From Phyllobates terribilis (Eukaryota): a stretch of 64,000 bases of DNA. The notes beneath the pieces were generated by a model. It made no database searches and was not told the DNA's origin. It saw only the letters and a program-made list of their open reading frames with translations. The translations under genes were made by a program, and so were the position numbers. Numbering within the stretch: position 1 is the first letter of the stretch; each line of letters begins with the position of its first letter. The stretch lies in NCBI RefSeq assembly GCF_046119375.1, contig NW_027362765.1:93372001-93436000 (forward strand). Reading direction: 5' to 3'. Of this stretch, positions 25,901 to 26,436 are shown piece after piece.

Positions 25901-26436
25901 CCTGAGGCTGACAACACGCAACCCCCCAATGACACCACGGGAGCAGCGGCGGTGGAGCGATACTTTCTTAAGAGGCTGGCTGGAAGGGTCCAACGCGGCG
26001 CGGAGGGAGTCGGTGGAGGCTTCCCAGACCCGGGTCGGGTCATAGAATTCCACATCCGAGAGGGGTACGGGTTCCTGGAAGAAGAGTGGACCGGGCACGA
26101 GGTGTTTGTTACTCGCGAGGTGATTAAGAGAGACTTTCTGCCCGATCGTCTCCATAATTTGCGTGTGGGAGACATAGTGCACTTCGTGAAGTGCGAGTGT
26201 TCCAGAGGGTGTACGCGCCTGCGCTCACCCGACCTTATGAATGGAAGGATGTCCTTGAGAAGGACGAAGAGGTCTTCCGGCGGAGGGCCAGAAGAGAGGC
26301 TCTGCAGCGCTGGGCTAGGGCAGCCCCCAAAAGATTCCTACCCCCTCCTAAGGCCGGTGTCCTGCAAGAAGAGGAGCCCAGGAAACGGCAGTGGAGAGAG
26401 ATTGAGAGTGAAGAGGAGGAAGGCTTCACAAGCTGA
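25901..26436 (+). pseudogene. Cold-shock-domain (OB-fold, RNP1/RNP2) protein remnant in G3
   Basis: GRVIEFHIREGYGFLEEEWTGHEVFVTREVIKRDFLPDRLHNLRVGDIVHFVKCECSRG (26033-26209). Restoring one base at ~26210 continues as WYAPALTRPYEW. Matches the CSD pattern G.V..F....GYGF.......VFV...I......L..GD.V.F......G..A. Confidence 0.75.

Follow-up and report, generated by a model that had tools for sequence, protein, structure and literature searches.

The 64,000-nucleotide stretch of the Phyllobates terribilis genome analysed in this study, to which we refer as the window, contains a decayed copy of a 4.65-kb LTR element termed G3 (23916–30098), which lacks gag and pol and is interrupted by a Tc1 transposon. 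It is part of a very large and apparently undescribed group of frog retroelements encoding a cold-shock domain (CSD) which, as judged from variants shared between copies, was under selection while the elements multiplied. In the interpretation we favour, to which we assign a probability of about one half, G3 is the dead copy of a helper-dependent LTR element, whose selected protein with its captured CSD would bind and shield the RNA of the element and probably help this RNA to compete for the enzymes and capsids that Gypsy elements with a matching LTR end and primer site provide. The first-pass annotation had proposed an anuran LTR lineage encoding its own CSD, which is borne out by the presence of at least 509 copies of the G3 family and by purifying selection, and none of the three findings it had named as contrary, the lack of a CSD or OB fold, a single-copy or neutrally evolving segment and a lone captured host fragment, was obtained.

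Architecture of G3 and its relatives

The 5′ LTR of G3 (23916–24886, on the forward strand as are all features of this copy) starts with TGTAA, ends with TTACA and is 96.5% identical to the 3′ LTR (29100–30098; 934 of 968 positions). The bases CTAA directly upstream of the former (23912–23915) and CAAA following the latter constitute an inexact target-site duplication. A primer-binding site at 24889–24906 is complementary to the 3′ end of the host tRNA-Ser (AGA/TGA) and a polypurine tract at 29086–29099 abuts the 3′ LTR, in agreement with the initial description of an LTR element where both sites surround the CSD. No tRNA-Ser was called at the first four tRNA-motif loci examined, and four of the 12 tested genomic matches to the motif complementary to the primer site are tRNA-Ser genes; at locus L101, an element primer site can pair with the tRNA motif over a stretch reaching about 26 nt and is miscalled by ARAGORN as tRNA-Ala. 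The long reading frame downstream of the primer site (24889–26590) is broken by four frameshifts and two stops compared to a naturally open sister copy, which together with the Tc1 insertion accords with the earlier view of a decayed copy. It includes a zone of about 195 codons with approximate limits (25830–26410) that is under purifying selection in the G3 family and in which the CSD (26033–26232), containing a Y-box-like long loop, is placed between two helical flanks. The pattern of this domain is present from 26033 onward as had been claimed, and the base presumed lost near 26210, preceding the last strand, reflects a genuine frameshift, with the strand being encoded in a single frame in sister copies. 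The stop-free frame at 25901–26698, which had been regarded as one ORF, is in the register of the element only between the frameshifts at about 26030 and 26210. The 3′ untranslated part contains a GC-rich hairpin (27056–27096), which is a candidate cis signal, and a Tc1/mariner transposon (27205–28839) that has later inserted at a TA, is foreign to the element and is missing at this position from all 20 sister copies compared.

The genome-wide survey of copies that had been suggested revealed G3 to be dispersed. A DNA search of the host genome yielded 880 candidates, 40 of which were scored, at 83–100%, and a degenerate motif of the G3-family CSD has 509 exact matches compared to none for a control, a number that is a lower bound for the family as the motif recovers 22 of 30 known copies. 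All of 20 sisters, which were chosen for long open frames, align end to end with the 2.6-kb internal part of G3 and show the same succession of LTR, internal part and LTR. In the 15 sisters where they were measured, LTR pairs are 95.9–99.3% identical, and a 4-bp target-site duplication is exact in 14 of them, with the boundary of the remaining one being misplaced and unscorable. The natural frames of the family, which start within the 5′ LTR, are open for 700–770 codons and have the CSD as sole Pfam match. We found no PNMA or Gag match in the element proteins by Pfam or BLASTP, and a search with a G3-family protein gave no match among 564 candidates with lengths of 419–1336. At several loci (L035, L050, L182–L184) copies of the G3 family form head-to-tail tandem arrays with common LTRs and a spacing of about 3.6 kb.

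The domain extends far beyond the G3 family. With the Pfam CSD profile, 33,380 first-look candidates were obtained in the host genome and all 150 that were scored exceed the cut-off; of 30 such loci that were fetched, 21 encode element-type domains, eight are host CSDE1-like and one is a Y-box-like relic. Among 20 element-type loci read at 10 kb, nine are 4.9-kb elements with LTRs of 99.4–100% identity and open frames of 694–816 codons, and matches to gag or pol were detected in five, in no case inside a detected LTR pair. A second motif describing related families has 25,046 genomic matches (control, 11). When loci from both motif searches were picked by position, the domain was encoded in 60 of 60, a purine tract and the start of an LTR were located within 1.5 kb downstream in 54, and a pol match was found near a single one, on the opposite strand; in the larger families, at least 500 codons are open upstream of the CSD in 19 of 30 position-picked loci. 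The elements thus display TG..CA paired LTRs, a primer site, a purine tract, a short target-site duplication and dispersed copies, as expected for non-autonomous LTR elements, and they lack the gag and PR-RT-RH-INT between LTRs that define an autonomous Ty3/Gypsy element. The CSD-bearing subfamilies are 70–90% identical in their DNA and differ in LTRs and primer sites. Between the G3 family and a young family (family B), the primer site is the only DNA in common, and their proteins share the CSD alone, with 38% identity over 72 amino acids. The related families, which have only the CSD in common with the G3 family, add about 25,000 copies. The earlier description of the CSD as cargo understates the role of what is the only domain common to the proteins of the G3 family and family B.

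Since the elements lack gag and pol, a feature that the first-pass annotation did not mention, their copying would rely on other elements. The junction between the LTR end of G3 and its primer site occurs 2,017 times in the genome. Of 30 sampled junctions, six are from G3-family copies and the remaining 24 come from two other families; matches to gag or pol follow 22 of the 30. Eight gag-pol loci read at 10 kb all contain pol and none encodes a CSD, and five of them, which constitute one gag-pol Gypsy family, carry in their LTR a 50-nt hairpin that is 90–94% identical to the one of G3. We regard as candidate helpers those Gypsy families that encode gag and pol, lack the CSD and share with G3 both the LTR end and the primer site. 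The hairpin region of G3 has a z of −2.4 for a 101-nt stretch, and in the 41 of 47 copies of the family that are long enough, 4 of 41 hairpin columns vary compared to 24% elsewhere, with no compensatory changes in these copies. The Gag of the candidate helper retains its own CCHC knuckle, and no similarity to this Gag was found in G3-family proteins. The LTR of the young CSD family resembles the LTR of an autonomous element of the window, termed G2 (66–71%). This element (6862–14703, forward strand), which contains a PNMA-type gag, PR-RT-RH-INT and a tRNA-Ser primer site identical to the one of G3, is enclosed by G1 (3093–18826, reverse strand), both being Gypsy elements without CSD. The primer site of G1 differs from those of G2 and G3 and is also found in one group of CSD elements. 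A second primer-site-like motif is located within the LTRs of G2 (7727 and 14560) and of the young CSD family (L081–L100), about 150–180 nt before the LTR end, and a fragment of the window at 19673–19949 is 73–75% like the LTR of one CSD-element group.

Fold and ancestry of the cold-shock domain

The G3 CSD is genuine, with the domains of sister copies predicted to fold as a five-strand barrel that is closest to YBX1 and YBX2. In the proposed comparison with the Pfam profile (PF00313), the window peptide alone scores 17.9 bits (E = 0.0028), whereas the curated cut-off is 27 bits, and in a structure search it matched YBX2 and YBX1 at E values of 5e-4 to 2e-3. The profile is matched by 14 of 14 aligned natural domains at E < 0.01. 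Bit scores amount to 13.5–23.8 in the G3 family, thus staying below the cut-off, and to 32–46 in related families, which exceed it. With a profile built from natural element domains, YBX1 and YBX2 rank first (E = 1e-12), followed by bacterial proteins, and LIN28 is missing among the 37 matches. The predicted model of a natural sister-copy domain (pLDDT 77.6) shows the five strands of an OB barrel, for which Foldseek returned YBX2 and YBX1 as best matches, with an E value of 4e-7 for the CSD of YBX2. For the whole selected zone, 204 residues in length, the pLDDT is 36.5, too low to assign a fold to the flanking helices. Searches of the ESM Atlas provided CSD leads only, all under 0.9, and no usable match for the N-terminal part of family B.

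The element CSDs and Y-box proteins, for which identities are 32–34% and TM-scores 0.71–0.75, have in common a long loop connecting the third strand to the fourth and charged flanks of low complexity. YBX2 is also known as FRGY2. The flanks themselves are unrelated, and in contrast to the N-terminal location of the CSD in Y-box proteins, where it hardly varies in sequence and precedes the Y-box tail, the domain is close to the C-terminus in the elements (residues 573–640 of 763 and 642–710 of 737). On the binding surface, the motifs G-Y/W-G-F and V-F-V are mostly retained. Among the contact residues described for YB-1, which include W65, F74, F85 and H87 (PMC7498358), the equivalents of F74 and F85 are mostly preserved, whereas the equivalent of W65 is gone in 14 of 14 aligned element domains and that of H87 in 13 of 14, and the last strand bears a new W/P-Y pair. 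Since the equivalents of W65 and H87 are lost, the affinity or the target of the element CSD may differ from those of YB-1.

A tree computed from 49 rows and 74 columns places all 20 element CSDs in a single clade (support 87/96), which suggests one capture of the domain, from a donor that was probably of the Y-box type. The branching around this clade does not single out a sister group, and the clade is not placed with the Y-box-like rows, which comprise invertebrate proteins and one host relic. When an invertebrate Y-box-like protein was used to look for the Y-box genes of the host, nothing was recovered except a decayed relic and a locus related to the elements, for which reason the tree is without vertebrate YBX and LIN28. 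Decayed, intronless Y-box-like CSD relics are located at L155, which is single-copy, and at L071. A region at 734.43–734.45 Mb (G000:C1, L051–L056) contains intronless, partly duplicated copies with long open frames that are presumably CSDE1-like. An element-type CSD that branches deeply and keeps VxVH forms a local, non-dispersed cluster of three at 791.47–791.52 Mb (G000:C4, L061, L156, L217–L222), for which no LTR pair was found and which is either an old relic or a domesticated gene.

Selection on the domain and its possible role

Variants were counted relative to the commonest codon of each column, with CpG-type sites left out, and those present in at least three copies were classified as shared and taken to represent changes that active elements had transmitted. 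In the CSD of 30 copies picked by DNA, nonsynonymous and synonymous variants amount to 3/16 if shared and to 37/13 if rare (p = 2e-5; ratios of 0.07 and 0.99). The corresponding values are 4/31 and 49/15 in 48 copies, 15/37 and 28/13 (p = 2e-4) in 22 further ones, which are those of 24 that were not too short, after removal of six duplicate or tandem copies, and 12/26 and 15/10 (p = 0.04) in 26 copies of family B, from the 29 of the larger families. As shared variants are non-independent events, the p values are indicative, and the sets picked by pattern favour intact domains, though the pattern codons were left out. Across three samples, the dN/dS-like ratio of the CSD is 0.05–0.16 for shared and 0.5–1.2 for rare variants, in line with the expectation of a value below 1 across copies. 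It is because the shared variants are mostly synonymous that we regard the CSD as selected during multiplication of the elements. In the G3 family, the constraint extends to about 65 codons on each side (shared ratios 0.08–0.3), but it is not significant for the upstream flank in two samples; in the young family, a coiled stretch preceding the CSD is constrained (0.23). The first 500 codons are weakly constrained (0.4–0.8), and ratios after the stop codon are 0.7–1.8. The two other forward frames within the CSD contain no comparable signal, and the low ratio of the reverse frame with the same third codon positions is the expected shadow of the real frame.

How would selection act on a protein that is not strictly required for copying? 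It is most easily explained if the gain goes back to the very copy from which the protein was made, since an element that borrows Gag and Pol would otherwise not profit from retaining it (an argument as in PMC13558583), and we thus propose that the protein, which would be produced in the germ line, acts in cis by favouring the RNA encoding it. In this scheme, the CSD would bind the RNA of its own element as it is made, and the bound RNA would be stabilised or stored and its packaging favoured, with gag-pol Gypsy families of matching ends supplying capsids and enzymes. Private traits of this kind are expected to be under stronger purifying selection (PMC13558583), and a comparable supporting part is played by host YB-1 for HIV, where it sustains RNA levels and early steps (PMC6040738). 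In four runs of one study, consisting of contigs only and presumed to be RNA, coverage is deep over the LTRs and sparse over the CSD region, which provides no evidence on expression in either direction. A wider and more tentative proposal, which we hold to have odds below even, considers the elements as a satellite-like class of vertebrate retroelements without capsid or enzymes. All they would encode is an RNA-binding protein of the Y-box type, captured and retuned, which would mark the RNA encoding it so that this RNA is stored and then taken up by Gypsy helpers of several unrelated kinds; this single module would have spread across LTR types and make up about 1% of a 10-Gb frog genome.

Instead of guarding RNA in the cytoplasm, the CSD might be carried into the helper particle and act there as a nucleic-acid chaperone in the DNA steps, such as tRNA annealing, strand transfer or the protection of single-stranded cDNA. 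We consider this unlikely in light of the CCHC knuckle already present in the Gag of the candidate helper, and because searches of the element proteins found neither a Gag-like domain nor any other that is known to direct proteins into particles. The suggestion of a nucleocapsid substitute appears improbable, as the element lacks a Gag and the Gag of the candidate helper keeps its own knuckle. A somewhat lower probability is assigned to a factor acting in trans against silencing or as competitor, which would tie up small RNAs, helper RNA or the targets of host Y-box proteins and from which all members of the family would profit. Such activity would fit the very high copy numbers and a binding surface whose altered residues, the lost W65 and H87 and the new W/P-Y pair, suggest a changed target; yet a benefit open to all copies should be worn down by non-coding ones that profit without contributing (PMC13558583), and both the ratios of 0.05–0.16 across many subfamilies and the upstream frames open for at least 500 codons in 19 of 30 loci of larger families argue against it. 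Still less probable is selection at the level of the host, where a few source loci would encode a protein from which the frog benefits and would give rise to the remaining copies. This has a precedent in the Gag of zebrafish BHIKHARI (PMC12067270) and is compatible with the non-dispersed cluster of the VxVH-keeping relative, but constraint in many subfamilies with different LTRs and primer sites would necessitate many separate host-selected loci. Finally, a passively carried, processed Y-box fragment in neutral drift, for which the single clade would reflect one capture and the ratios near 1 of rare variants a lack of constraint, is very improbable, as the strongly synonymous shared variants in three samples argue against drift and the CSD is retained where the remaining element is unalignable between families.

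Known systems, taxonomic range and other features of the window

Non-autonomous LTR elements are usually non-coding or encode Gag only. LARD and TRIM elements contain a primer site and a purine tract, lack pol, need a helper and are defined as non-coding, whereas the frog elements retain a selected protein. The gag-only elements Bik-1 and Bik-2 of zebrafish BHIKHARI, whose Gag is described as useful to the host, are similarly non-autonomous vertebrate elements keeping one coding frame (PMC12067270); this frame encodes Gag, whereas no similarity to Gag was found in the frog elements, whose kept domain is a captured RNA-binding fold. A host-type CSD within LTR retroelements is found in 46 bird ERVs, where a PF00313 domain was captured several times and where the authors read this repetition as a possible adaptation (PMC12287698). 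These ERVs were identified by their RT, in contrast to the frog elements with Gypsy-type ends, no gag or pol, a single CSD clade, about 25,000 copies in one genome and measured purifying selection. In orchids, Ty3/Gypsy elements have captured an m6A demethylase domain and likewise illustrate a Gypsy-type carrier fixing a host domain of RNA metabolism (PMC9289625); the latter concern plants and an enzyme domain, as opposed to a non-autonomous carrier and a domain that is probably of a nucleic-acid-binding type. The frog lineage is devoid of gag and pol, and a captured RNA-binding domain of host type is retained in it under strong selection, in families that differ in LTRs and primer sites. It thereby offers a direct way to test whether a parasite of retrotransposons can gain an edge through an RNA-binding protein of its own that acts in cis, and why CSDs are captured repeatedly by retroelements, as in the bird ERVs.

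In the openly available literature that was searched, no report of the frog lineage was found, and the term "cold shock" does not appear in the main text of three frog genome papers. Gene annotations of Phyllobates, Ranitomeya and Anomaloglossus list relatives among their uncharacterised proteins, and P0016 reads, by eye, nearly as the frame of the young family. Among the best 8000 and 7999 candidates of two word-limited searches and the best 150 of 9770 profile matches, named relatives are exclusively dendrobatid and aromobatid, which places the domain in two poison-frog families, but the case for a range restricted to poison frogs is weak because repeats are usually masked in annotations. 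The elements leak into gene annotations and would be missed by surveys based on pol. The public poison-frog gene models P0156, P0157 and P0158 combine the element CSD with domains that have no relation to it, such as R3H, and are probably annotation chimeras and possibly cases of exonisation. With about 25,500 motif matches of about 5 kb each, we estimate that the elements account for roughly 1% of the assembly, with solo LTRs uncounted, and they may contribute to the growth of poison-frog genomes.

The window also contains, at 33195–38222 and 56246–57544, host exons resembling COG1, the first of which is followed by a 36–40-nt minisatellite, and a zinc-finger exon resembling C17orf80.
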